Source: an uncultured Bacilli bacterium
Lineage (GTDB): Bacteria; Bacillota_I; Bacilli_A; RF39; UBA660
DNA length: 64,000 bases
Assembly (NCBI GenBank): GCA_910588025.1
Contig: CAJUQG010000001.1
Location: forward strand, 152,323 to 216,322
Direction of reading: 5' to 3'
The notes below the pieces were generated by a model. That model saw only the letters and a list, made by a program, of their open reading frames with translations. It was not told the origin of the DNA and made no database searches. Each line of letters opens with the position of its first letter. Position 1 is the stretch's first letter. Positions 12,540-61,850 of the stretch are shown here, piece after piece. A program made the position numbers and the translations under genes.

Positions 12540-13998
12540 CCTCTCTAATCTCTTTTTTCTTTCTCGTCATTTTCTTTCCAACACCGTTAGTTAACTCAAA
12601 CAAAAACTGATCTTTTAAAACAACTAAAGCTAGAAAATAAACACTACCAGAAACCCCAACTTGGATGACTATTGACCCAAAATGATCAGTTATCAAACTA
12701 CCTACCCAAATACTACAAACAAATAATAAGATAGATGCAATCAAATATTTATAAGTTAATTGAAATACTTCCTTGAAACGAATTTCTTTTCTTACTAAAA
12801 CAAATTGAGTAAAAGTAACAGAAAACTCCGCAATTACAGTTGCAATAGAAGCTCCAATGGAAGCAAAGTTTTTAATAAAAAGAAAATTAAGAACTAAATT
12901 AACAATGGCCCCAATACAAACCGATAAAGTATATTTATTCTGCTGTTTAGTAGGAAGTAAAAATTGAGTACCCATAATATTACTTAAACTAATGAACACA
13001 ATAATCGGACTAATAATACAAATGAGCGGAGCCACTTTATCATATCCCTCCCCATAAAAAAGAGGAACAAATTGATATGCAACACTCATGATGCCAAACA
13101 TCAAAGGAAATGCAATCATCATGATAAACTGAAATGAATGATTCAAATATTTTTTAATTTGTGTATGCTTTCCTTCTGCATAAGTTGCAGCAATCCTTGG
13201 TAACATCACCGTTCCAAAAGAAGTTGCAATCGTAAGTAACAATTTAATCATTTTTTGCGCTTGCTCATAATAACCGACTTCTGCTTTATCGTGAATAATA
13301 GCTCCAATCATTGTTTTATCTAACACTGTATAAATTTGCGTAGCAATTTGGGGAATAAAAAGAATCATCATCGGTTTCATATGTTTCACAAAATTTAATT
13401 CCTTAAACTTTACTCTTTTAATAACTCTAGGTAAATAAATCCACAACGACAAATTTCCCAAAAGATTTGCTAAAACATAAATTAATAAATAGTGATTTAA
13501 ATCATGTTCACTTCTCACAAAAAGAAAGATACAAATCACACTAATGATTTTAACTAACATATTTCGCATTACAGTCTTTTTAAATTCTTCTAACCCTTGA
13601 AAATACCAACTAATATCGATTGCACTAGCTAAAATTTCTAAAGTTAAAATCTTATAATAAATTTGATATTCCAAAGAAGAGCAAAACGTAAAATAAAACA
13701 CCAACATAGAAATCATCAAAGTAAAAAAACGTAACCAAAAAATTTCAAGAAAAGCTTTACTACGTTTTTCTATATTTTCTTGACAATAAGCAATCTCTCT
13801 TTGACCATACAAAGCAACTCCTAAAGAGCCAAACAAAATAAAATAAGTCGTAATAGACAATGTATAACTATATATTCCGATATTTTCTGCTCCAAGTACT
13901 CTTGACAAATATGGAGTAGTAATAAAAGGAATAAGAATTGCTAATATTTGATAAGATAAATGATAAATATAATTTTTCACAATACTTTTCTTTGCCAT
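12532..13998 (-). CDS. Wzx-type oligosaccharide flippase (MOP superfamily)
   Basis: About 14 TM helices and the typical polysaccharide-biosynthesis-protein N-terminus. ATG at 13998 follows an AAAGAGG SD; the track start is an upstream GTG. Confidence 0.8.
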   Translation of the reverse strand: MAKKSIVKNYIYHLSYQILAILIPFITTPYLSRVLGAENIGIYSYTLSITTYFILFGSLGVALYGQREIAYCQENIEKRSKAFLEIFWLRFFTLMISMLVFYFTFCSSLEYQIYYKILTLEILASAIDISWYFQGLEEFKKTVMRNMLVKIISVICIFLFVRSEHDLNHYLLIYVLANLLGNLSLWIYLPRVIKRVKFKELNFVKHMKPMMILFIPQIATQIYTVLDKTMIGAIIHDKAEVGYYEQAQKMIKLLLTIATSFGTVMLPRIAATYAEGKHTQIKKYLNHSFQFIMMIAFPLMFGIMSVAYQFVPLFYGEGYDKVAPLICIISPIIVFISLSNIMGTQFLLPTKQQNKYTLSVCIGAIVNLVLNFLFIKNFASIGASIATVIAEFSVTFTQFVLVRKEIRFKEVFQLTYKYLIASILLFVCSIWVGSLITDHFGSIVIQVGVSGSVYFLALVVLKDQFLFELTNGVGKKMTRKKKEIREDE

Positions 13999-49462: not shown

Positions 49463-50398
49463 ATGAATCCAAAGAAAAAAAACCTATGTATTCTCGTACT
49501 TTTACTCATTCTCTTATTTTTAATCCTTCAAAAAAATAGCGAAGTCAAAACCAGCATCATTTTTGGAGCAGAACTATGGCTTACTAAAGTATTTCCATCA
49601 TTATTTCCTATGTTCATCTTAAGTGACTTATTAATGTCTTACCACTTACCAGAATATCTTTCTAACCTTTTTGGACCCTTTTTCACCAAATTATTTAAAA
49701 CCAGTCCATATGGCGTATTTACCCTTTTTATGTCACTCATTGCTGGTACTCCATCGAGTGCTTATATTTTAAAAAACTTAAGTGCCGAACAAAAAATTAC
49801 CGAACAAGAAGCCAGTCATTTATTACAATTCACATTTTTCTCTAATCCCCTTTTTCTTCTTACCATGTTAAATGTTATTTTTCCAAATCAACCGCATCTT
49901 ATTATTTCTATTATCTTAATTCATTATAGTTCCAATCTACTTATTGGTTTATTACTAAGACCAAAAACGACTCCTACTTGGACAAAAATAACTTTTGTCA
50001 AAACAAAGCTAAATCTTGGAACAATCTTGTCAAATTCCATCAAAAAAGCCATGAATACCTTACTTCTTATCTTAGGAACCATTTGTTTTTATCTAATGCT
50101 AAGCACTATTTTTACTTTAAAAAATCCTCACTTAAATCTTTTGATGAAAGGATTTTTAGAACTAACTCAAGGTCTTAATAGCTTAATGACAAATAACTAT
50201 TCCATTACCTTCAAAAGTATTTTATCACTATTTTTCATTTGCTTTGGTGGCTTAAGTATTCACACCCAAATAAAAAGTATCATTGAAGATACTTCGATTT
50301 CTTACCTTTCCTTTTTAAAAGGACGCATTTTACACGTTATCATTTCTTTCTTATTACTATTTCTTTTAAGCTTCACAAGTATTGCTTTCATATCCTAA
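49463..50398 (+). CDS. YlbJ-like sporulation integral membrane protein (nucleoside-recognition-domain family)
   Basis: GAELWLTKVFPSLFPMFILSDLL, polytopic. At 311 aa it is shorter than my memory of B. subtilis YlbJ. Confidence 0.6.
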   Translation: MNPKKKNLCILVLLLILLFLILQKNSEVKTSIIFGAELWLTKVFPSLFPMFILSDLLMSYHLPEYLSNLFGPFFTKLFKTSPYGVFTLFMSLIAGTPSSAYILKNLSAEQKITEQEASHLLQFTFFSNPLFLLTMLNVIFPNQPHLIISIILIHYSSNLLIGLLLRPKTTPTWTKITFVKTKLNLGTILSNSIKKAMNTLLLILGTICFYLMLSTIFTLKNPHLNLLMKGFLELTQGLNSLMTNNYSITFKSILSLFFICFGGLSIHTQIKSIIEDTSISYLSFLKGRILHVIISFLLLFLLSFTSIAFIS

Positions 50399-50962
50399 AA
50401 AAGCTTTAGAAGGAAAACTACTGGCATTAATATCACTAGATTTTCCGACATAAAACAATTCCAAATCATCAATGGCATTCGCATCACTCTCACCAATTAC
50501 CACCGGAATACGTATATGAACATAAAAATAATCAGAACAAACCGCTGATTCACAGTTTGCTCCCGTACAACATGGAGCATTTTCAAAATGATAATAAACA
50601 CATCGTTTTTGATAAGAAGTCCGATTATTTCCTGCTTTCATACTCCAACGTTCATCATGATAACTCACCGACTTATCACTTACTGTTAACGCCCGACTAC
50701 TACCATCTTGAAACTGAAACGTTAAACGTAATTCCCCATAAGTACTAGAATCAGTCATCCCAACTAACCCAAGTGATGTAAAATCATCCATAATCGTTCT
50801 AATAATACTTGCACGATTCAATTGATTATCACTAGCAAAGGTCCCATTTTTACTCGTATATTGAATATCTACTAATAAATTAAACAAAAAAATCATTACA
50901 ACTGCTACTAAAGCAATACTGACAATAAACTCAATCAAAGTAATTCCTTTTTGGTTTTTCAT
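50366..50962 (-). CDS. prepilin-type N-terminal cleavage/methylation domain protein (Cys-rich pseudopilin)
   Basis: KG|ITLIEFIVSIALVAVVMIF. Cys cluster RCVYYHFENAPCCTGANCESAVC. Confidence 0.75.
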   Translation of the reverse strand: MKNQKGITLIEFIVSIALVAVVMIFLFNLLVDIQYTSKNGTFASDNQLNRASIIRTIMDDFTSLGLVGMTDSSTYGELRLTFQFQDGSSRALTVSDKSVSYHDERWSMKAGNNRTSYQKRCVYYHFENAPCCTGANCESAVCSDYFYVHIRIPVVIGESDANAIDDLELFYVGKSSDINASSFPSKAFLGYESNTCEA

Positions 50963-51543
50963 AAATCACCTACTTTTAATGTCGCATAATAATACCTACA
51001 ATGTTCTTCATCGACACAAGCACCACCCGCTCCATCTTCACGATACTCAACAATCATTCGATATCCATCTTCGCCTTTTCCTCCGATGGTACGTAAATAA
51101 TTTCCTAAATTGGCATTAACTCTTGAAAATACAGAACAAATTCCTTCATAATTCGTACAAGTTTGCAATTGTGATAAATCCCGATAAGTGACATAAACAT
51201 TTGCAATATGAAGTTCTCCACTCAAAAGTTCACAAAAGCCTCCTTCTTTATCTACATCATCAAAAATATCACCAGAACCACAGCCAAAAGAAAGTAAAAA
51301 ATTAACATTATCATTCGTATTTTCGTTACTTAAATTACCTATAATACGGTCAATTCGCTGACTACTAAAATATTTTTTTACATAATAAGTTCGATAAAGA
51401 TAACTCACATCATCATATAAAAGACGTGCTTTCTCATTATTAGAAAGTGCAATATAAGTAGAATATAAATACAACAAAGAAGTGATTAAAACTGCTATAA
51501 CAATAATCGTTTCAACAAAAACAAAGCCCTTTTTATTTCTCAT
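50959..51543 (-). CDS. prepilin-like protein with non-canonical G|FVFVE N-terminus (Cys-rich pseudopilin)
   Basis: KKG|FVFVETIIVIAVLITSLLYLY with E+5 retained. It has 7 Cys. A 4-nt overlap links it to the downstream pilin-like gene. Confidence 0.65.
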   Translation of the reverse strand: MRNKKGFVFVETIIVIAVLITSLLYLYSTYIALSNNEKARLLYDDVSYLYRTYYVKKYFSSQRIDRIIGNLSNENTNDNVNFLLSFGCGSGDIFDDVDKEGGFCELLSGELHIANVYVTYRDLSQLQTCTNYEGICSVFSRVNANLGNYLRTIGGKGEDGYRMIVEYREDGAGGACVDEEHCRYYYATLKVGDL

Positions 51544-51656
51544 TATGATTCATCCTTTATTATTCATTATAAAAGATTACCCCTTTTTTTTCAAATCATT
51601 TTAAGAACCCACGCCAAAGAAAAAAAATAGCATACGCTATCAATAGGTGATGTATT

Positions 51657-51857
51657 ATGCAACCAGGTTGTAGAAGACCATGTGGAAAAGGACCAAACGG
51701 CTTTTTTACTGTAATAGCCATTTTGATCCTTAGTTGTCTTATTTTTTATCAAGTAATTATTACTTTAATTCTACCATTTCGTTTTAATATTTTTATCTTA
51801 TTTATTGAAATAGTACTGCTTTTATTTTTGCTCTACCGTATAGTATGGCCTTACTAA
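51657..51857 (+). CDS. small hydrophobic protein (66 aa), hypothetical
   Basis: An AGGTGA SD lies 7 nt before the ATG. MQPGCRRPCGKGPNGFF is followed by two TM helices. The 3' end overlaps the convergent ysxE-like gene by 36 nt. Confidence 0.4.
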   Translation: MQPGCRRPCGKGPNGFFTVIAILILSCLIFYQVIITLILPFRFNIFILFIEIVLLLFLLYRIVWPY

Positions 51858-52712
51858 CTCTTCCGTTTTAAACAAATAATCTAAACCTTCTCGAACCATT
51901 TTACAATTTTGAAACTCTTCCTCAGTAAAGGTCATTTTCATCGGTAAAGAAATTAAAATAAAAAACAATTTTTTTTCTGCTTCTTGAAGCGGAAATTTCT
52001 CTTGATATTTTTGAAATAGCGTTATAAACTCTACATCAAAATAATCCGTTTGATAAAAGTGAACCAAATCTAACACTGGACTATCAATTTTACTCTTTTC
52101 CCAACTAATAAAATAATCTCGGTCACCTTTCAAATAATGTTCCAAACTCATATTATTATGAATAAAACTAACTCGTTGGCGACTTTCTTGTTTCACAAGC
52201 TCAAACCAATCATCTAACTCTCTTTTGGCAAAATCTAAACTAGAAAGAATTTTAGAACTATTTCGCATAAAAAGATAATGACTTGGAGACATATAATTTT
52301 CTAAAAAACAAGTATCAAACAAAGTATCATAGTACTGTTTTAAATATTGAATATTAGAATCTATGTTTTCATAAATTTCTTGATAAGTATCCAAACTAAC
52401 CGTTTTAAAATAAGCGGTTTTTTGATGTAATGAAGCAAGTACTCCAATTAAATCTTGAGCTTTTTGTTCCGTTGGCATTGGAGTATCTTCTACATAAGAA
52501 AACATATTTACATCAGCTCTACTAAAATCAACCAATTCTGGAAACTCATGAAAATTGCGAGATTGTAAATAACGATAAACCTTAGCAACATCATTTTCTT
52601 TTGGTTTTACAACAAAATTACCACTTGTCGTTTCTAAAATCGTAATTTTTCCTCGCTTCGTATAACGAATAGGTTTATAAATATCTTTTAATACTTCAAT
52701 ACTTTTATTCAT
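51822..52712 (-). CDS. CotS/YsxE-family spore-coat kinase-like protein
   Basis: Aminoglycoside-phosphotransferase-like fold pattern (IHNNMSLEHYL...YFISWEKSKIDSPVLDLVHFY). It lies immediately downstream of the spoVID-like gene, as in the B. subtilis spoVID-ysxE operon. Confidence 0.65.
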   Translation of the reverse strand: MNKSIEVLKDIYKPIRYTKRGKITILETTSGNFVVKPKENDVAKVYRYLQSRNFHEFPELVDFSRADVNMFSYVEDTPMPTEQKAQDLIGVLASLHQKTAYFKTVSLDTYQEIYENIDSNIQYLKQYYDTLFDTCFLENYMSPSHYLFMRNSSKILSSLDFAKRELDDWFELVKQESRQRVSFIHNNMSLEHYLKGDRDYFISWEKSKIDSPVLDLVHFYQTDYFDVEFITLFQKYQEKFPLQEAEKKLFFILISLPMKMTFTEEEFQNCKMVREGLDYLFKTEELVRPYYTVEQK

Positions 52713-53460
52713 CTTCTTTAGGAATAATAATTTTATCTCCTACTGCCACTTGACTCATATCATTATATTCACTTAACAAACCTAAATTGGAATGATACAT
52801 CGTACAAATAGTTTCCACAGTTTCTCCAGAATTTACAATATGAATGTGGTAAGTAGCATAGCTATCATCCATCGGATTCACATTTTGAATAATTGTTTCT
52901 TCACTTTCTTTCATATCTTCTTTTACAACTTTAGTTTCTGTCATCATAGTCTTTGTTTCAACTCTTTCTTGTTCTGGTTCTTCTACGTCTTCCGTCATAA
53001 GTATTTGTGTTAAAATTCCTTCTTCTTCTGGTGTTTCAATTAATCTTGATAAATCTGGTTCTTCTACTTCTTCTTCACGTTCTTCTTTTATAACGTCTTC
53101 AACTGAAACTACTGGAACTTCCATCACTTCTTCTTCCACCAGTTCTTCCGCCGAAATAGCAAATTCAATATCTACTTCCACCGTATCATCATTTAAGACA
53201 TCATAAGAAAAATCGGTAATCTCAAATTGAAATGTATCTAAATCAACATGATCTGTTATTTCAATCGAAAATGGTAATTTATATAAAAATGGTTCACGAT
53301 TGACACTCACCTCATGACTTTTATAATCTCCTGATATAATAAAATTACCATGAACTTCTTCTGGAGTTAAATCGATTTCATGTTCTAATGACATACTAGT
53401 AATCTCAGCAATTTTAGACCCAAAAGAAATCTCTTTTTTATAAGGAACTATACTTTTCAC
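52705..53460 (-). CDS. SpoVID-like spore morphogenetic protein (N-terminal SpoVID domain, acidic linker, C-terminal LysM)
   Basis: GTG at 53460 follows a GAGGGTGAG SD. N-domain KEISFGSKIAEITSMSLEHEIDL...LPFSIEITDHV. Glu-rich middle. LysM YHIHIVNSGETVETICTMY...VGDKIIIP. Confidence 0.7.
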   Translation of the reverse strand: MKSIVPYKKEISFGSKIAEITSMSLEHEIDLTPEEVHGNFIISGDYKSHEVSVNREPFLYKLPFSIEITDHVDLDTFQFEITDFSYDVLNDDTVEVDIEFAISAEELVEEEVMEVPVVSVEDVIKEEREEEVEEPDLSRLIETPEEEGILTQILMTEDVEEPEQERVETKTMMTETKVVKEDMKESEETIIQNVNPMDDSYATYHIHIVNSGETVETICTMYHSNLGLLSEYNDMSQVAVGDKIIIPKEDE

Positions 53461-53597
53461 ATTCTCACCCTCTCCCCACAATGTATGCAAAATTTCATCA
53501 TTTAGAACAAAACAAAATGAAATTCTGTCAAACAAAATATTTTTCCACAAAAAGGCCAAAAAAATATGATAAAATGTATCATAGAAAGAAGGATATT

Positions 53598-55853: not shown

Positions 55854-58079
55854 TTATACATGCAAACTGTTTTTTAATTCAGTAACAATTTTTTTAATCT
55901 CTTCTGCCGACTCATCATAAAATTCCAATCGAAATTTACGAATTCCCATATGAAAGTAAGCATCTATCTTTTGTAATAAATTTAACCTTTTATAATGCAT
56001 AATGTGCGTACGATGAAACTCATCCATATGAAGAGGATAAATTTTACCATTTCGATCTTTCAAAGAATAAATATCTTTTCCTTTACAGACTTTACATACT
56101 TTTTCTTGATTTACATTCATATGTAATAAACAATGATTTAACACCATTACTTCCAAGCGTCCATAAACAATTAATTCAAAAGGATTCCCATTTGGATACT
56201 TTTTTAATAACTCTTCTAATTCATAATCTGTAATCTCTGGTGTTAAACACATTTGCTTTACCCCACAAGATGTCCAAAATTTCTCTGTTGCATGGTTAGA
56301 AATGTTAAGAAAATAATCCAAATAAGCTTCTTCTTTATCTAAAAGTGCTCCACTTTCACAAGCAAGTACTTTCTTACTATCATAATAAGTAGAATGCATA
56401 ACTCTGTTTGTGCGATAAATCACATTTTTTTCATACCTTTGAGCTAATTTATAATCAGAAACATAAATTTTAGAAACACCAAGTTCTAATAATGTTTTAA
56501 CATGCTCTTCACTCATAGCATTTGCTGTAATACAAATAGAGTCATCATATGAATATTCTTCTTCATGAGCTTTCCTAATAGCTACCTCACTACGATTTAC
56601 CCTTTTCTTAATTAACTCATCAACTGCTCTTCTTCGTATCTCATTCATATCACGCACATTCATATAAAGATTATCTTCCAAAGATATTTCGATATTTTGA
56701 AGAAGAAATGGTGTATTTCCAAGTTTACTAAATTGCTTTTTTACTACTTCTTTGGTAATTGGACAATGATCTGATTTCTCTACACAATCTTCCTTTATAA
56801 TAACCGAGAAAACTCCATCACTCATTTGAAATTCTATATGATTTAAAGATATAGATAATCTCATTGTAACCAATACTTTTTTCTCAGATCTTGCTAAAAT
56901 ACTTTCCTCTAACTTTTTATCAAGGGTTTTCATAACACTACCAAAATGACTTATACCAACTTTATTATCTACAAAAATAAGATCTCCATTTTTGGCACCA
57001 GAAATAAGATCACCATTTTTATGATATAAAAAATTAACAATCATTCCCTTGTTTTCTTCTACAAAACGTATACCATCTTCTTGATTTAAATCATCATCAA
57101 GTCGAATGCCAATTTTTTTCTTATCTATAACTTCAATATTCCCTAAAAAGCTTCCTTGATGATTACTTGTTTTTTGATTCATAAACTCATCATCTTGAGC
57201 ATGAAAAATCTTACCACTTGTAAATCCTCTTCCAAATAAAGTTTCTGCTTTTTTAATATCTTCTTCGCTTACCTTCATACTTTCTTTTAAAAAATACCGA
57301 TCAATTAAACTACGATAAGTCTGTGTCATAAATCCTACATAAGCTGGACTTTTCATTCTTCCTTCTATTTTAAAACTTTGAATATTAGAATCTAAAAGTT
57401 CACTAAAACGAGAAGATGTATTTAAATCTCTTGTAGATAATAAAAATTCACCATTTGTTTTATAAGGTACATTATTTTTTAACAACTGCCATGGCAATCT
57501 ACAAATTTGAGCGCATTCTCCTCTATTCCCACTACGATTCATTAACAAACTTGAAAATAAACATTGCCCAGAATAAGAAATACATAAAGCACCATGAATA
57601 AATACTTCAATTTCAATATCATCAGGAAACCTCTTTATTTCTTCTAAAGATAATTCTCGAGCTAAAACGACACGCTTTACACCTAATTTTCTTAAAAATT
57701 CAATTTGTGAAATATTATGAATATGAACCTGTGTTGAAGCATGAATTTCTAAATCAGGATACTTTTCATGACAAAGTTTCATTAAACCAATATCTGCCAT
57801 AATAACTGCATCAACATGATTAAGATATAGAAATTCAATATAAGATAATACTTCATCAAGCTCTGATTCATAAATCATTGTATTAACAGTAACATAAATT
57901 TTTACTCCATACAAATGACAGAAAAAAATAGCGGATAACATTTCACTTTCCGAAAAGTTTGATGCAAAAGCTCTAGCACCAAATTTCTTCCCCCCTAAAT
58001 ACACCGCATCTGCTCCATGATATACAGCCATTTTTAAAGACTCCATATTCCCAGCTGGACTAAGCAATTCTTTTTTCAT
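55854..58079 (-). CDS. peptidase U32 family protein with two U32-like modules
   Basis: N-terminal module with the U32 signature EVFIHGALCISYSGQCLFS...GECAQICR. The C-terminal second module (ELIVYGRLEVMVLNHCLL...CKVCKG) is more divergent. Confidence 0.8.
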   Translation of the reverse strand: MKKELLSPAGNMESLKMAVYHGADAVYLGGKKFGARAFASNFSESEMLSAIFFCHLYGVKIYVTVNTMIYESELDEVLSYIEFLYLNHVDAVIMADIGLMKLCHEKYPDLEIHASTQVHIHNISQIEFLRKLGVKRVVLARELSLEEIKRFPDDIEIEVFIHGALCISYSGQCLFSSLLMNRSGNRGECAQICRLPWQLLKNNVPYKTNGEFLLSTRDLNTSSRFSELLDSNIQSFKIEGRMKSPAYVGFMTQTYRSLIDRYFLKESMKVSEEDIKKAETLFGRGFTSGKIFHAQDDEFMNQKTSNHQGSFLGNIEVIDKKKIGIRLDDDLNQEDGIRFVEENKGMIVNFLYHKNGDLISGAKNGDLIFVDNKVGISHFGSVMKTLDKKLEESILARSEKKVLVTMRLSISLNHIEFQMSDGVFSVIIKEDCVEKSDHCPITKEVVKKQFSKLGNTPFLLQNIEISLEDNLYMNVRDMNEIRRRAVDELIKKRVNRSEVAIRKAHEEEYSYDDSICITANAMSEEHVKTLLELGVSKIYVSDYKLAQRYEKNVIYRTNRVMHSTYYDSKKVLACESGALLDKEEAYLDYFLNISNHATEKFWTSCGVKQMCLTPEITDYELEELLKKYPNGNPFELIVYGRLEVMVLNHCLLHMNVNQEKVCKVCKGKDIYSLKDRNGKIYPLHMDEFHRTHIMHYKRLNLLQKIDAYFHMGIRKFRLEFYDESAEEIKKIVTELKNSLHV

Positions 58080-58095
58080 AACTTTTCACCAAACC

Positions 58096-58124
58096 TTGTA
58101 ATAATTCTAAAAATCTGTTATTAT
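58096..58124 (+). promoter_or_regulatory. possible promoter of the two-gene cassette
   Basis: TTGTAA, a 17-nt spacer, then TATTAT. An AGAAAGGA SD and the ATG at 58160 follow. Confidence 0.3.
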
Positions 58125-58159
58125 AACACCAATTTTTAACTAGAAAGGACTAATTACAT

Positions 58160-59122
58160 ATGAGTTTTGAAAATGCAAGATACTTAATAGAAAAAAATAA
58201 AGATACTTACAAAAAAGATCCTATCAATCAAGTAACACCAATAACAGAAACAGAAAATCCTTTACTACAACAGTATAAAAGACAACTGCAAAGATATCAA
58301 GAAATAATAAAAGAATTAGAAATATGGCAAAAAATCATTAAAAATAAAAACCGAAATCAAAAGGAAGATAAAGAAGGTTTAGAAAAAGAAACGAAAACTC
58401 CACTTTCAAAAACACAAGCAATAAAACTACCTACCACAAAACAAGATATTATTGAGTTTTTAAATAACGCACCACTAATTCATGAAGCAAAAAAACAAAT
58501 CATCACTTATTTATACCAAGAAGCATGTACATATAATGAAATAGCCAAAAATAGCACGAATGAAGAAGATAAAGAAGAATGTAAAAAAGAAATTGAAGCC
58601 ATATTATCTCAGATAGAATGGATTCAAAACTATCAAAAAATAGAAGAAAAAGAAGTAAGCGAAACAACTCACAACAATATGATCTTTCTAACCTCTAATT
58701 CTGGACGTATTATTCCTTTAGAAGAAATAAGTAAAAATATTCCAATGGAATTTTATGACTCATTAAAAGAAGCCTTAATATCTATTGAAAATGGAACTTT
58801 TATTGGTTTTAAACCACTAACTAAAAGAAAATACAATGAATTAAGAAAGCCAAAAGTAAGAGTTTTATTTAGTCAAATAAATAAAAATACCTTTTTAGTT
58901 TTATCTTGCTTTTTCAAAAACTACGATACCAACTTAAAATATAAAGAAAATCTAGACAACCTAAGCTATATCTTAATGCAAAAAGAATCAGAATATAAAA
59001 CATTAGCACAAGATCCTAACTATTTAGAAGAACAAGAAAAAACAAAAAATACTATTTATAATATTTTAACAACGAAAAGAGATGAATTTAATGGAAAATC
59101 TTTGGACCGAAAAAGAATCTGA
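58160..59122 (+). CDS. hypothetical protein; Lys/Glu-rich N-terminal half and RelE/HigB/Gp49-like C-terminal module
   Basis: C-terminal block NNMIFLTSNSGRIIPLEEI...GTFIGFKPLTKRKYNELRKPKVRVLFSQINKNTFLVLSCFFKN. It follows the pattern of Gp49/HigB-type toxins (…kL…ElR…yRvlf……vlL..F.KK). Confidence 0.55.
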   Translation: MSFENARYLIEKNKDTYKKDPINQVTPITETENPLLQQYKRQLQRYQEIIKELEIWQKIIKNKNRNQKEDKEGLEKETKTPLSKTQAIKLPTTKQDIIEFLNNAPLIHEAKKQIITYLYQEACTYNEIAKNSTNEEDKEECKKEIEAILSQIEWIQNYQKIEEKEVSETTHNNMIFLTSNSGRIIPLEEISKNIPMEFYDSLKEALISIENGTFIGFKPLTKRKYNELRKPKVRVLFSQINKNTFLVLSCFFKNYDTNLKYKENLDNLSYILMQKESEYKTLAQDPNYLEEQEKTKNTIYNILTTKRDEFNGKSLDRKRI

Positions 59123-60830
59123 ATTAACAAAACTATTAGCTTTGAAAGAAAAGCTTTTAAGTAACTTTGATACCACTACATTAGCTAATTATCTAATTAC
59201 AATAGCTGATTTAGAAGGATTAGAATTACAAGAAGAAGAAAAAGTATTTATTTTAGACTTTTTTGAAAAAAATAATAACGCCGAACTACAATTATATTTG
59301 TTTGCAATTTTTGAATATGGAAAAGCATTTAATTATTTAAATACCTTAAGATATGGATTATTTAGAGTTTTATCAATTAAAGACTTATTACGAAAAAGAG
59401 AATTTGAAAAAAATGAATTAGATTTAATAAGAGCAGAAAAAATATTAGACAAAAATGAATTAAAACAATTTAAAACATTTTGCAAATATTTTTCCAGGGT
59501 TTGGAGAAACACAACAGAAAAAAAGAATACAAATAATCCTTTAATTAAATTAATGGAAAAATTATCAGAAAAAGGATTTTATTATTATCAAAATTATCTT
59601 GAATATATTTTTAATATTAAATTAACAAAAACGGAGCAAGATACCAATATTACTACAAGAATAAAATTTAAAAATAGAACAAATAAAATAAAAAATAAAA
59701 CTTTTTTAACTCCAATTGAAGAAAGAATTTTAAACTTAAAAATGGAACAAAAACAAAAAGAAAAAAAGGGAAAAAATTTAGAGCAAAAACAGGAACAAGC
59801 CTTCAAAATTATTGATTCCTTTATTCAAAATAATGCGAAAAGATTTATTGAATTGTCTCCACAAATAACAAAATATTTCTCTTCTCCTGAAATAGAAACT
59901 TATGCATTAAATAAAATCATAAATCACAATGAAAAAGTAATAAAGCAATTACAAATAGAAAAAGATTTGCTAGAAAAACAATTAGATGACTCTTATGAAT
60001 TAGTTTTCTTAGAATCTGACTATGACTTACCAGAAGAAAACGTAATGAAACAAATAAAAGAAAGCTTAACAAAAGAAAATTTAGCAAAATTATTAAAAGC
60101 TTTAAATAAAAAAGAATTTTCCTTTTTAAACTCTAAACATCCAAATTTTTTAGAAATATTACAAAATACAAATGAACTTACTTTAAAAGAAATTTCAAAA
60201 GAAATAAGTGATAAGATATTACCCACCACTTACCTAATTTCTTATCCTAAAATATTAACGACTTCTACTTTCTTACTTTATAAGAAAAATAAAGAACTAG
60301 TACTTCAAAATAACTTAAATATAGATTTCTTTCACAATTCTAATATTTTATTATTAGATAGTGACACATTACAAAAAGTAGTTAATTTAATAAAAACTTA
60401 TCATTGTGAAACTTTAATTTGTTATGGCCTAAACTATTTTGATCAGGTAGATGCTTTAATTGAGCAAAGATTTAATTTACTTCCAGATACATTGGAAGTT
60501 GAAGATTTTACTACTACAAAAGTTCAAGAATTACTAAATAAACAAATTCCTTTAACAATGACTTCTGAAAATGAAAATGAAATTGCATGGTTAGATGAAG
60601 AATTTAAAGTAGATTCTCTAAGATATTGTATCAATGGATTTATCATTTCTAGAATAAAAGTTCTTCGTTATTTTACTTCTTTAAATCAATGCAAAGAAGA
60701 TAGAAACCAAAATTTAATAGATGCCATTTTTTATAACACTCATTTTTTTGAATTTGAAAAGCAAATGATTATGGATGCGTTAAAAAGAAATCAAACAAGA
60801 AAAAAGATTATTTCTCAGTATCAAGAATAA
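59082..60830 (+). CDS. hypothetical 582-aa helical, Lys/Glu/Asn-rich protein
   Basis: A long uninterrupted ORF that overlaps the upstream gene by 41 nt (32 nt if the ATG at 59091 is used). No motif recognised. Confidence 0.55.
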   Translation: MNLMENLWTEKESELTKLLALKEKLLSNFDTTTLANYLITIADLEGLELQEEEKVFILDFFEKNNNAELQLYLFAIFEYGKAFNYLNTLRYGLFRVLSIKDLLRKREFEKNELDLIRAEKILDKNELKQFKTFCKYFSRVWRNTTEKKNTNNPLIKLMEKLSEKGFYYYQNYLEYIFNIKLTKTEQDTNITTRIKFKNRTNKIKNKTFLTPIEERILNLKMEQKQKEKKGKNLEQKQEQAFKIIDSFIQNNAKRFIELSPQITKYFSSPEIETYALNKIINHNEKVIKQLQIEKDLLEKQLDDSYELVFLESDYDLPEENVMKQIKESLTKENLAKLLKALNKKEFSFLNSKHPNFLEILQNTNELTLKEISKEISDKILPTTYLISYPKILTTSTFLLYKKNKELVLQNNLNIDFFHNSNILLLDSDTLQKVVNLIKTYHCETLICYGLNYFDQVDALIEQRFNLLPDTLEVEDFTTTKVQELLNKQIPLTMTSENENEIAWLDEEFKVDSLRYCINGFIISRIKVLRYFTSLNQCKEDRNQNLIDAIFYNTHFFEFEKQMIMDALKRNQTRKKIISQYQE

Positions 60831-61233
60831 TCTTTTTTATTTGATCTAATGTTTCTTCATAATAATGATCTAATTCACTACGTTTATAAACCCATATATA
60901 AGATGGATGATATATTTTTAAAACCTTACAAAAAGAAAAATTATGTCGTTTTAGTTCCTTAAAAACTAGGTTCCCACACACCACTAATAAATCAGGTTTA
61001 AGCGTCTTTATATGACAAATAAAACTTTGATATTAATCATGTAATTCCTCTTTCGTAGGATAGCGTAATTTTCCTGATAAATCGGTAGGTGCATAAGAAA
61101 CATAATTGATTTTTTCACACACACAATTTAAATGCTTTATAATATGATCTATTATTTTCCCAGATGCGGTAGAACTATCAAACGCTTTCTTATCACACTT
61201 ATTACTTATTCCTACAAATACAACCTTTTTCAT
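60808..61233 (-). pseudogene. uracil-DNA-glycosylase-superfamily-like gene interrupted by an in-frame TAA
   Basis: ORF 61033..61233 ends ...PTKEELHD at TAA (61033..61035). The same frame continues for 74 more codons, YQSFICHIKTLKPDLLVVCGNLVFKELKRHNFSFCKVLKIYHPSYIWVYKRSELDHYYEETLDQIKKIILDTEK, to a TAA at 60808..60810. Confidence 0.6.
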
Positions 61234-61850
61234 TTCGTAAGTTCTACAATTTTTTCTAATACTTTTCCATACTTAGAATAAGCTGTTTCATGAGCATTTA
61301 CTAAAAAATCAGAAAACAAAATTTCTCTTTTTTCTTGACATATTCTACCATGATCTAAAAACAATACAAGCCCATTTATACTTCCTTTTTCTTCTTGAAA
61401 TAAGTTTAAAACTTCATGAGCATTTACTAAAACAATACCAGAAACCTCATTTGGATCTAATTCAAAATCATCATAATTTCCTTCATACAAATCTACATAA
61501 ACATGTGCAAATGCACGGTCACGAAAAAGAGTTCCATCCTTTTTTTCACGGTCCATAACAAATGGAACCATCTCTACAAATACAGCATCATGTGAATCAA
61601 TAGAAATACCAATTTCTTCTTCTATCTCTCTACGAAAGCCCTCTTCTAAAGATTCACCAGCTTGTAAATGACCAGATGCCGTTGTATATAAAGTTCCCTC
61701 ATCCTTTCTTATTTGAAAGAAAGCATTTCCGTTTTTATCGTATAACCAACAATGAATCGTTTTATGCCACAAAGCATCACGATGTACGATACTTCTCTCT
61801 TCCTTACCTAAAAAATTTCCTTGTTCATCATATATATCTAAATATTCCAT
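61230..61850 (-). CDS. NUDIX hydrolase
   Basis: Nudix box GHLQAGESLEEGFRREIEEEIGI. Its stop overlaps the start of the UDG-like gene (ATGA). Confidence 0.88.
   Translation of the reverse strand: MEYLDIYDEQGNFLGKEERSIVHRDALWHKTIHCWLYDKNGNAFFQIRKDEGTLYTTASGHLQAGESLEEGFRREIEEEIGISIDSHDAVFVEMVPFVMDREKKDGTLFRDRAFAHVYVDLYEGNYDDFELDPNEVSGIVLVNAHEVLNLFQEEKGSINGLVLFLDHGRICQEKREILFSDFLVNAHETAYSKYGKVLEKIVELTK

Follow-up and report, generated by a model that had tools for sequence, protein, structure and literature searches.

An overlapping gene pair of uncultured gut Bacilli combines a predicted HigB-type domain with a large helical partner

The present study concerns two overlapping genes on the plus strand of a 64,000-nucleotide stretch of DNA from an uncultured mouse-gut Bacilli bacterium of the RF39 lineage (assembly GCA_910588025.1, contig CAJUQG010000001.1, positions 152,323 to 216,322), which in its full length is termed the window and whose numbering is used for all coordinates of this locus. 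Gene 1 (58160–59122) encodes a protein of 320 amino acids (aa) with a Lys/Glu-rich N-terminus, a helical domain, a Gp49/HigB-like domain and a helical tail, whereas gene 2 (59091–60830) encodes its all-α partner from an unnamed family, with a length of 579 aa, or 582 aa if translation begins at 59082. Both open reading frames (ORFs) are real and constitute a tightly coupled operon, which a broad range of uncultured gut Bacilli with low GC content have preserved in its entirety. An earlier note on this DNA had described overlapping plus-strand ORFs of 320 and 582 aa, sharing 32 or 41 nucleotides, which is borne out by the ORF coordinates, and it had proposed that the first protein contains a toxin-like module that is not accompanied by a recognisable antitoxin. 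Here, we characterise both proteins, their distribution and their genomic surroundings and weigh the possible functions of the pair. Residues of the first protein are counted in the sequence encoded in the window.

Organisation of the locus

The better start of gene 2 is the ATG at position 59091, since it is located 9 nucleotides downstream of a ribosome-binding, Shine-Dalgarno-like run (GAAAAGAG, 59074–59081, plus strand, read from the sequence) and since the corresponding Met is conserved among relatives. Gene 2 thus most likely encodes 579 aa and overlaps with gene 1 by 32 nucleotides (59091–59122), compared to 41 nucleotides with the start at 59082. A second Shine-Dalgarno-like sequence (AAAGGA, 58144–58149), equally read from the sequence, precedes the ATG of gene 1 by 10 nucleotides. 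Further upstream, the 80-nucleotide divergent intergenic region, which is common to gene 1 and an adjacent gene encoding a U32 peptidase, contains a promoter-like site on the plus strand (TTGTAA-17-TATTAT with a TG extension, 58096–58124), whose match at nine out of 12 positions is not above the expectation from shuffled sequences in this AT-rich DNA and which is thus considered a candidate only. Neither the scan for promoters and terminators nor the search for small palindromes in the 80-nucleotide leader revealed any element that would exceed chance.

Among the 53 ORFs of the window that encode 120 aa or more, only eight reside on its plus strand, in line with the predominance of minus-strand genes that had been described previously. 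The same description had noted by eye the high content of AT and of Lys, Glu and Asn in the pair, which is reflected in GC contents of 25.5% for gene 1 and 22.4% for gene 2, compared to 30.4% in the window, and in a combined fraction of the three residues of 34% and 31%, compared to 17–24% in the neighbours. At third codon positions, the GC content (GC3) of 0.16 in gene 1 and 0.13 in gene 2 equals the values of neighbouring genes (0.13–0.16). The AT-richness thus originates from the amino acid composition and is no mark of foreign DNA, for which reason we have rejected a foreign origin of the pair as deduced from its low GC content. When compared to the allele of the relative L001, the ratio of non-synonymous to synonymous substitution rates is 0.32 for gene 1 and 0.48 for gene 2, illustrating purifying selection on both, which together with their conservation in relatives identifies them as real genes. 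Short complementary DNA contigs from mouse-gut RNA libraries map inside gene 1 and inside gene 2, constituting weak evidence of expression, with a carry-over of DNA being possible.

Distribution of the pair

Word-indexed searches of 5.8 billion proteins have identified only five homologues of the first protein, at 50–95% identity, and two of the second, all of them in uncultured 'Bacilli bacterium' metagenome-assembled genomes (MAGs) from mouse gut. A much larger family emerged in an exhaustive hidden Markov model (HMM) search with the alignment of the first protein against 1.84 billion representatives, which at E≤1e-3 recovered 330 clusters, with 104 of them at E≤1e-10. Members of this family in nearly all cases comprise 300–350 aa and match over their full length, with N- and C-terminal extensions being conserved, and no source names them.

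By pattern-based scans in which each GTDB species was represented by a single genome, we have located 41 further species loci, which comprise 21 initial loci, 14 new ones and another six new ones that were anchored on gene 2. All are from uncultured gut MAGs of mouse, human, rabbit, goat, rumen or chicken origin, which are labelled as Bacilli, Tenericutes, Mollicutes, Erysipelotrichaceae, Mycoplasma sp. or Candidatus Faecimonas (Bacilli incertae sedis). In 32 of the 34 evaluable loci that were anchored on gene 1, an ORF of 535–700 aa corresponding to gene 2 is found directly at its 3' side, either overlapping or adjacent, and gene 1 precedes gene 2 in all six loci found via the second gene, amounting to 38 out of 40 evaluable cases. 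Overlap or direct adjacency is thus the rule in the family. Three of the 41 species contain a tandem duplication of the entire pair with strongly diverged copies (L019, 7980–13697; L059, 149–5619; L060, 1137–7249). Conversely, gene 1 is found without gene 2 in two related species (L029, 107–1093; L032, 7836–8441), where the Gp49-like core and the four R/K-R-F-K residues described below are intact. In both of these species, gene 1 is followed by a gene encoding a class II tRNA synthetase, and the ORF of gene 1 in L032 is shortened to 201 aa.

A predicted HigB-type domain in the first protein

As judged from the comparison of family profiles, the product of gene 1 is a multidomain protein of about 320 aa, whose residues ~170–265 (58667–58954) constitute a divergent Gp49/HigB-type (RelE/BECR) domain. 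This domain is preceded by a conserved helical domain without known family (residues ~95–160, 58442–58639), which is the sole part of the protein that was modelled by AlphaFold2 with a predicted local distance difference test (pLDDT) score of 72–81, and it is followed by a helical tail of about 55 aa. The Gp49-like module recognised by eye in the earlier note is thus retained, whereas its placement at the last ~130 aa of the protein does not hold strictly. The consensus of the C-terminal domain in the family is N.LIFL.T..GN......L..IP.EYY..F..LL.SI.NGTFK..K.......G..EV[RK]....R[IV].F.RL..N.Y.IL..F.KK.D....Y...L.NR.

The relationship to HigB toxins becomes apparent at the level of the family. 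Gp49 (PF05973) is the only Pfam family that was matched repeatedly, by 11 out of 62 family members at E<0.01 with a best value of 6.9e-7. With the same model, the HMM consensus derived for the domain reaches 27.2 bits (gathering score 23.9, E 4e-6) and covers positions 4–89 of its 90 positions, and natural members of the family score 17–23 bits over the same span. This match is present for the family and absent for the single sequence of the window, and the toxin pattern proposed previously thus holds in the profiles and the conserved residues of the family but not in the window protein alone. When a profile of 40 domain sequences was searched against all sequences of the PDB, the top match was HigB from S. 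pneumoniae (6AF3/6AF4) at an E-value of 0.011. In this toxin, mutagenesis has identified Arg 68, Arg 73, Phe 90 and Lys 92 as residues that underlie RNase activity and toxicity (PMC7984235). They correspond to Arg 88, Arg 93, Phe 110 and Lys 112 in the chain of 6AF3, whose numbering is offset by a tag of 20 residues, and in the profile alignment they coincide with Arg 229, Arg 234, Phe 251 and Lys 253 of the first protein (codons 58844–58846, 58859–58861, 58910–58912 and 58916–58918). Among 40 family members, position 229 is Arg or Lys in 37, position 234 is Arg in 40, position 251 is Phe in 35 and position 253 is Lys in 40 sequences. As far as can be judged from this alignment, the domain keeps the four residues that are important for the RNase activity and toxicity of the pneumococcal toxin. 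The coincidence of functional HigB residues with invariant columns of the family makes a chance resemblance unlikely, and we thus accept the assignment as a predicted Gp49/HigB-type domain at the family level.

Both proteins of the window show nothing significant when searched against Pfam, PADLOC, NCBIfam and PHROGs. With the family consensus, the only match in PADLOC is a weak one (21.6 bits) to the C-terminus of NsnC, the effector of the Menshen system, which is a BECR domain. A match to the NCBIfam model 'BSAP-5i immunity' at 23.5 bits, compared to a cut-off of 150, was discounted as low-complexity noise. Similarly, marginal phmmer matches to annexins, which were obtained in the PDB with an artificial consensus of the domain (E 0.004–0.5), recur neither in the profile search nor in Pfam and are ascribed to composition.

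The family of the helical partner

The product of gene 2 is an all-α protein of about 580–630 aa, which belongs to a new family and is almost always encoded immediately downstream of gene 1. Partners from different species are homologous to each other, and an alignment of the family of the window protein to the partners of other species with hhalign yielded a probability of 98.7% (E 2.6e-16) over 346 columns. The region that can be aligned across the partner family contains leucine-rich helical repeats and encompasses residues 206–569 if numbered from 59082 (59697–60788). The family shares a conserved C-terminal motif ('Y.ING..IS+.KV.R') and a weak internal repeat of about 90 aa (E 0.027), and a model of the protein predicted by AlphaFold2 from a shallow alignment (pLDDT 38.6) is largely helical. 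No match to the family was found in Pfam, the PDB, PADLOC or PHROG, even when searched as consensus. The sole trace of a helix-turn-helix (HTH) motif is a 15-residue fragment of HTH_8 at E 0.04–0.08, and the claim that the pair lacks a recognisable HigA or HTH antitoxin is thus upheld, since Pfam provides no HTH in the 579-aa protein beyond this fragment. A resemblance to mTERF proteins, as suggested by repeats recognised by eye, was dismissed in light of the absence of a match to the mTERF family in Pfam, even with the family consensus, and of clear repeats of about 30 aa. The last 110 aa of the protein are perfectly conserved. We have rejected a functional constraint or an overlapping element as a cause, as this region is located beyond a recombination breakpoint and shows no match in Rfam.

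Genomic context, mosaic structure and evolutionary rate

In every contig of close relatives, the U32 peptidase gene on the minus strand is followed by genes 1 and 2 on the plus strand and by genes encoding UDG-family, NUDIX and Ser-hydrolase proteins on the minus strand. The upstream neighbour in the window is thus the divergent U32 gene (PF01136 in relatives), as stated previously. On the opposite side, a broken UDG-family gene, the NUDIX and Ser-hydrolase genes and an unknown gene precede the one encoding an ABC_tran/UvrA-like protein. In other species, the pair is found in the vicinity of addB/addA upstream and rplU-ysxB-rpmA downstream and of genes encoding leucyl-tRNA synthetase, a class II tRNA synthetase (tRNA-synt_2), RNase R and a GH31 protein. 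As identified by homology, rplU is located just 3' of gene 2 in 11 out of 35 loci and addA is found upstream in 10 of them, and four of the six loci anchored on gene 2 display the same pattern of ORFs of 100, 100 and 96 aa, as judged from ORF sizes. The pair resides between addB/addA and rplU-ysxB-rpmA in L017, L018, L026, L028, L030, L040, L042, L043, L046, L047 and L048, which is probably its ancestral position, and in the genus of the window it has moved next to the U32 gene. Since this synteny is common to species whose first proteins share only about 25–35% identity, it indicates vertical descent.

The proposal that the pair might be part of a mobile toxin-antitoxin or abortive-infection island does not agree with these results. 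The pair is conserved and syntenic at this locus in all close relatives, an outcome that the earlier note itself had named as refuting its proposal, is found adjacent in at least 41 further species in housekeeping contexts and shows native GC3. The suggested survey for an association with defence islands or prophages yielded none, as neither protein matches a PADLOC model and no relatives of the pair were found in IMG/VR, where a motif was used, or by tblastn in GenBank phages, at the sensitivity of these searches. Equally, the surroundings of the pair are free of defence, integrase and prophage genes, both in the window and in about 40 further loci, and we found no paper that would connect RF39 with toxin-antitoxin systems.

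The region of the window between approximately 48,400 and 62,700 is a mosaic that combines the sequences of two lineages at the species level and originates either from natural recombination or from a chimeric assembly. Compared to the DNA of L001, the flanks are 97–100% identical, whereas the identity drops to 51–87% between approximately 55,760 and 60,490. This block is of the type found in L012 (MGBC162267) and includes the U32 gene, gene 1 and the N-terminal four fifths of gene 2, whose proteins are 93–98% identical to L012 and only 57–66% to L001 (66% for U32). In contrast, proteins encoded left of 55 kb are 98–100% identical to L001 and 68–83% to L012, and the stretch between 60.5 and 62.7 kb is ~97–99% identical to both. 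The right breakpoint falls inside gene 2 and thus accounts for the perfect conservation of its last 110 aa. For the region 57000–61500, every word that was sampled is present in each of several independent runs from mouse gut. An interpretation of the 4.7-kb block of low identity to L001 as hypervariability of the cassette was rejected, since the block also spans the U32 gene and matches L012, and since other genes are equally divergent between the lineages. Within the L012-type block, the protein divergence amounts to 4.7% for gene 1 and 6.9% for gene 2, compared to 1.6–2.7% for the U32, NUDIX and hydrolase proteins, illustrating that the pair evolves several-fold (~3–4 times) faster than its neighbours, yet under purifying selection.

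Several features were observed in the surroundings of the pair. The UDG-family gene of the window (60810–61233, minus strand) is interrupted by an in-frame TAA at 61033–61035, at the equivalent of the TCA codon of Ser 67 in the intact 145-aa protein of L001. It is either a nonsense pseudogene or a strain variant, with the contig of one run carrying a G at 61034, which corresponds to the intact allele. At the convergent overlap of the 3'-ends of gene 2 and the UDG-family gene, L001 (~12,600–12,650) contains a 25-bp tandem duplication (ctcagtatcaagaataatctttttt) that is absent from the window (60,810–60,830). Just upstream of the locus, a run of small minus-strand genes (50,366–53,559; 2203–5300 in the relative L001) includes one for an N_methyl (pseudopilin/ComG-like) protein, suggesting that the organism possesses an operon for a competence-type pilus. 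Finally, a leucyl-tRNA synthetase ORF in L021 (3579–6395) displays an unusual combination, with a NUDIX match inserted at residues 376–500 (Pfam E 6.7e-12).

Discussion

The features of the locus described in this study are most readily, although only tentatively and with somewhat less than even confidence, explained by a chromosomally fixed module resembling higBA, where a HigB-type endoribonuclease domain has become part of a multidomain protein that is translationally coupled to a novel regulating or neutralising partner. This reading is based on the conservation of active-site residues, the order of the genes with the toxin preceding its partner, the duplication of the pair as a unit and its faster evolution compared to neighbours. 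Gene 1 would accordingly encode a predicted HigB-type endoribonuclease that probably cuts ribosome-bound mRNA, and whose activity might be restrained and set free through contacts at the protein level with its own helical N-terminal domain, with the product of gene 2, or with both. Gene 2 would occupy the position of HigA as translationally coupled second gene, without being an HTH antitoxin. The module would thus be a vertically inherited, chromosomally fixed derivative of a higBA-like pair and not a mobile defence island, with candidate roles in the control of growth and translation under stress or in an abortive response to phages. A classical toxin-antitoxin module or defence island is not supported, since the pair is vertically inherited, syntenic, embedded among housekeeping genes, native in its codon composition and absent from defence and phage libraries, and since there are species that contain gene 1 only.

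Several observations weigh against this assignment. The HigB link of the first protein rests on modest scores, and the window protein alone does not match any Pfam family at E≤10. When profiles from alignments of close relatives were searched against sequences of the PDB, no match was obtained for either protein, including a match of the first to Gp49 or RelE. In the model of the first protein predicted by AlphaFold2 from an alignment of six sequences, the mean pLDDT is 52, and the Gp49-like domain is drawn as helices at values below 50. The best hit of this low-confidence model in a Foldseek search of the PDB (E 0.22, template modelling score ≤0.2) is noise, with no RelE-like match. The partner lacks a recognisable DNA-binding or antitoxin domain in profile scans, and it cannot be an indispensable antitoxin in L029 and L032, since gene 1 with its catalytic residues persists there in its absence. 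Finally, toxin-antitoxin modules are not usually conserved by vertical descent throughout a clade and among housekeeping genes.

The clade-wide conservation next to a ribosomal operon agrees with the strongest alternative, in which the HigB-like domain would be part of a domesticated housekeeping factor with a core, non-toxic role at RNA or the ribosome, such as the processing of mRNA or rRNA or the rescue of ribosomes, and in which the product of gene 2 would serve as scaffold or adaptor. The occurrence of the pair in all of the recovered species loci (41 representatives and the genus of the window), mostly as a single copy per genome, its co-directional placement among housekeeping genes, just upstream of rplU-ysxB-rpmA in the 11 of 35 loci mentioned above, the purifying selection acting on both genes, the lack of a detected association with mobile elements or phages, and the two species where gene 1 persists without gene 2 are all consistent with such a role. 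It is opposed by the duplication of the pair as a unit in three of 41 species, by an evolution in one lineage that is about 3–4 times faster than that of neighbours (4.7–6.9% compared to 1.6–2.7% aa divergence) and by a genomic position that varies between lineages, and we know of no housekeeping protein containing a Gp49-type domain. We thus regard this explanation as rather unlikely, while giving it appreciable weight.

It is also conceivable, although unlikely, that a HigB/Gp49 domain has been permanently domesticated in a large clade of uncultured gut Bacilli with reduced genomes to become a regulated, ribosome-linked RNase with a partner from a new all-α family of about 600 aa, with the pair being ancestrally located upstream of rplU-ysxB-rpmA and vertically inherited. 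Equally new would be a self-inhibited 'fused' toxin, for which the large partner may act as sensor. If domestication has taken place, a fold that is otherwise known from selfish toxin-antitoxin and defence modules would serve a core function of the cell.

In a further scenario, the pair would constitute a new, dedicated anti-phage system of the abortive-infection type, with gene 2 encoding a large sensor that releases the RNase effector encoded by gene 1 upon infection. A precedent for this arrangement is provided by NsnC of the Menshen system, where C-terminal effectors of the BECR/Gp49 type are attached to adaptor domains (PMC12065111) and whose model shows the described weak match to the family consensus, and the duplication and divergence of cognate pairs and their fast evolution compared to neighbours would be in accordance with such a role. 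It appears improbable, however, as neither protein alone matches a PADLOC model, as the flanks in the window and in about 40 other loci contain addBA, rplU, tRNA synthetases and RNase R instead of defence, integrase or prophage genes, as the pair is not patchy in its occurrence but vertically inherited and syntenic, and as GC3 is native.

Very improbable is, at last, a resemblance to Gp49 that is due to chance or a fossil, with the domain being inert or of a non-RelE fold and the pair being a lineage-specific structural or scaffolding unit, since the lack of a significant match for the window protein alone, the low-confidence helices drawn by AlphaFold2, the largely helical and charged character of both proteins and the marginal annexin matches, which show how easily a K/L/E-rich consensus finds helical proteins, are opposed by the repeated match to Gp49 alone over its whole length, by a profile search that ranks HigB first and contains no annexin, with the Annexin family of Pfam remaining unmatched, and by the identity of the four functional HigB residues with the most invariant columns of the family. 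If the domain were inert, the pair would be a lineage-specific conserved operon.

Returning to the higBA-like module as the favoured explanation, an active HigB-type RNase encoded by gene 1 would display an undescribed architecture, where the Gp49 domain is framed by a helical domain at the N-terminus and by a helical tail, paired with an unnamed partner family of about 600 aa. The pair is fixed in the chromosomes of a whole radiation of uncultured gut Bacilli, for which genetics is not available and which contain few annotated regulators. It would become a test case for the transformation of selfish toxin modules into stable components of the cell, and its assignment would give names to two families with hundreds of members each, which currently appear as 'hypothetical protein' in gut metagenomes.

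Comparison with known systems

The first protein shares with HigB toxins of the Gp49 type (PF05973) the core pattern K.L...[EV][RK]....R[IV].F......Y.[IL]L..F.KK. and the equivalents of Arg 68, Arg 73, Phe 90 and Lys 92, and as in the pneumococcal protein, the last strand would be followed by a helix. The organisation of the operon, where the toxin-like gene is located upstream of its partner and overlaps with it, by 32 nucleotides in the present case, equally resembles higBA. In contrast to the standard toxin, which is a stand-alone protein of about 100–120 aa, the product of gene 1 comprises 320 aa, with an N-terminal extension of about 165 aa and a C-terminal tail of about 55 aa, and instead of a HigA protein of about 100 aa with an HTH of the Xre type, its partner is an all-α protein of 579 aa without HTH. 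Moreover, the inheritance of the pair is clade-wide, vertical and syntenic instead of patchy.

With NsnC of the Menshen system, the first protein has in common a size of about 300 aa, a non-catalytic N-terminal domain, a C-terminal RNase domain of the BECR type, which is predicted in case of gene 1, and presumably the control by a larger partner. Distinct from Menshen, the pair is not accompanied by the adjacent genes nsnA (ParB-DUF262) and nsnB (ABC ATPase/DUF3696), its upstream neighbours being U32 in the window and addA/addB, tRNA synthetases and similar genes in other species, the N-terminal domain of the first protein is helical and lacks a PIN-like match, and the context of the pair is one of housekeeping rather than a defence island.

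A chromosomally fixed toxin-antitoxin system in a conserved operon is found in staphylococci, where mazEF is located upstream of the sigB operon. Although it belongs to a different family of toxin folds and contains a different partner, mazEF resembles the pair described here as a toxin-type RNase pair that is present throughout a lineage at a fixed position near housekeeping or regulatory genes.

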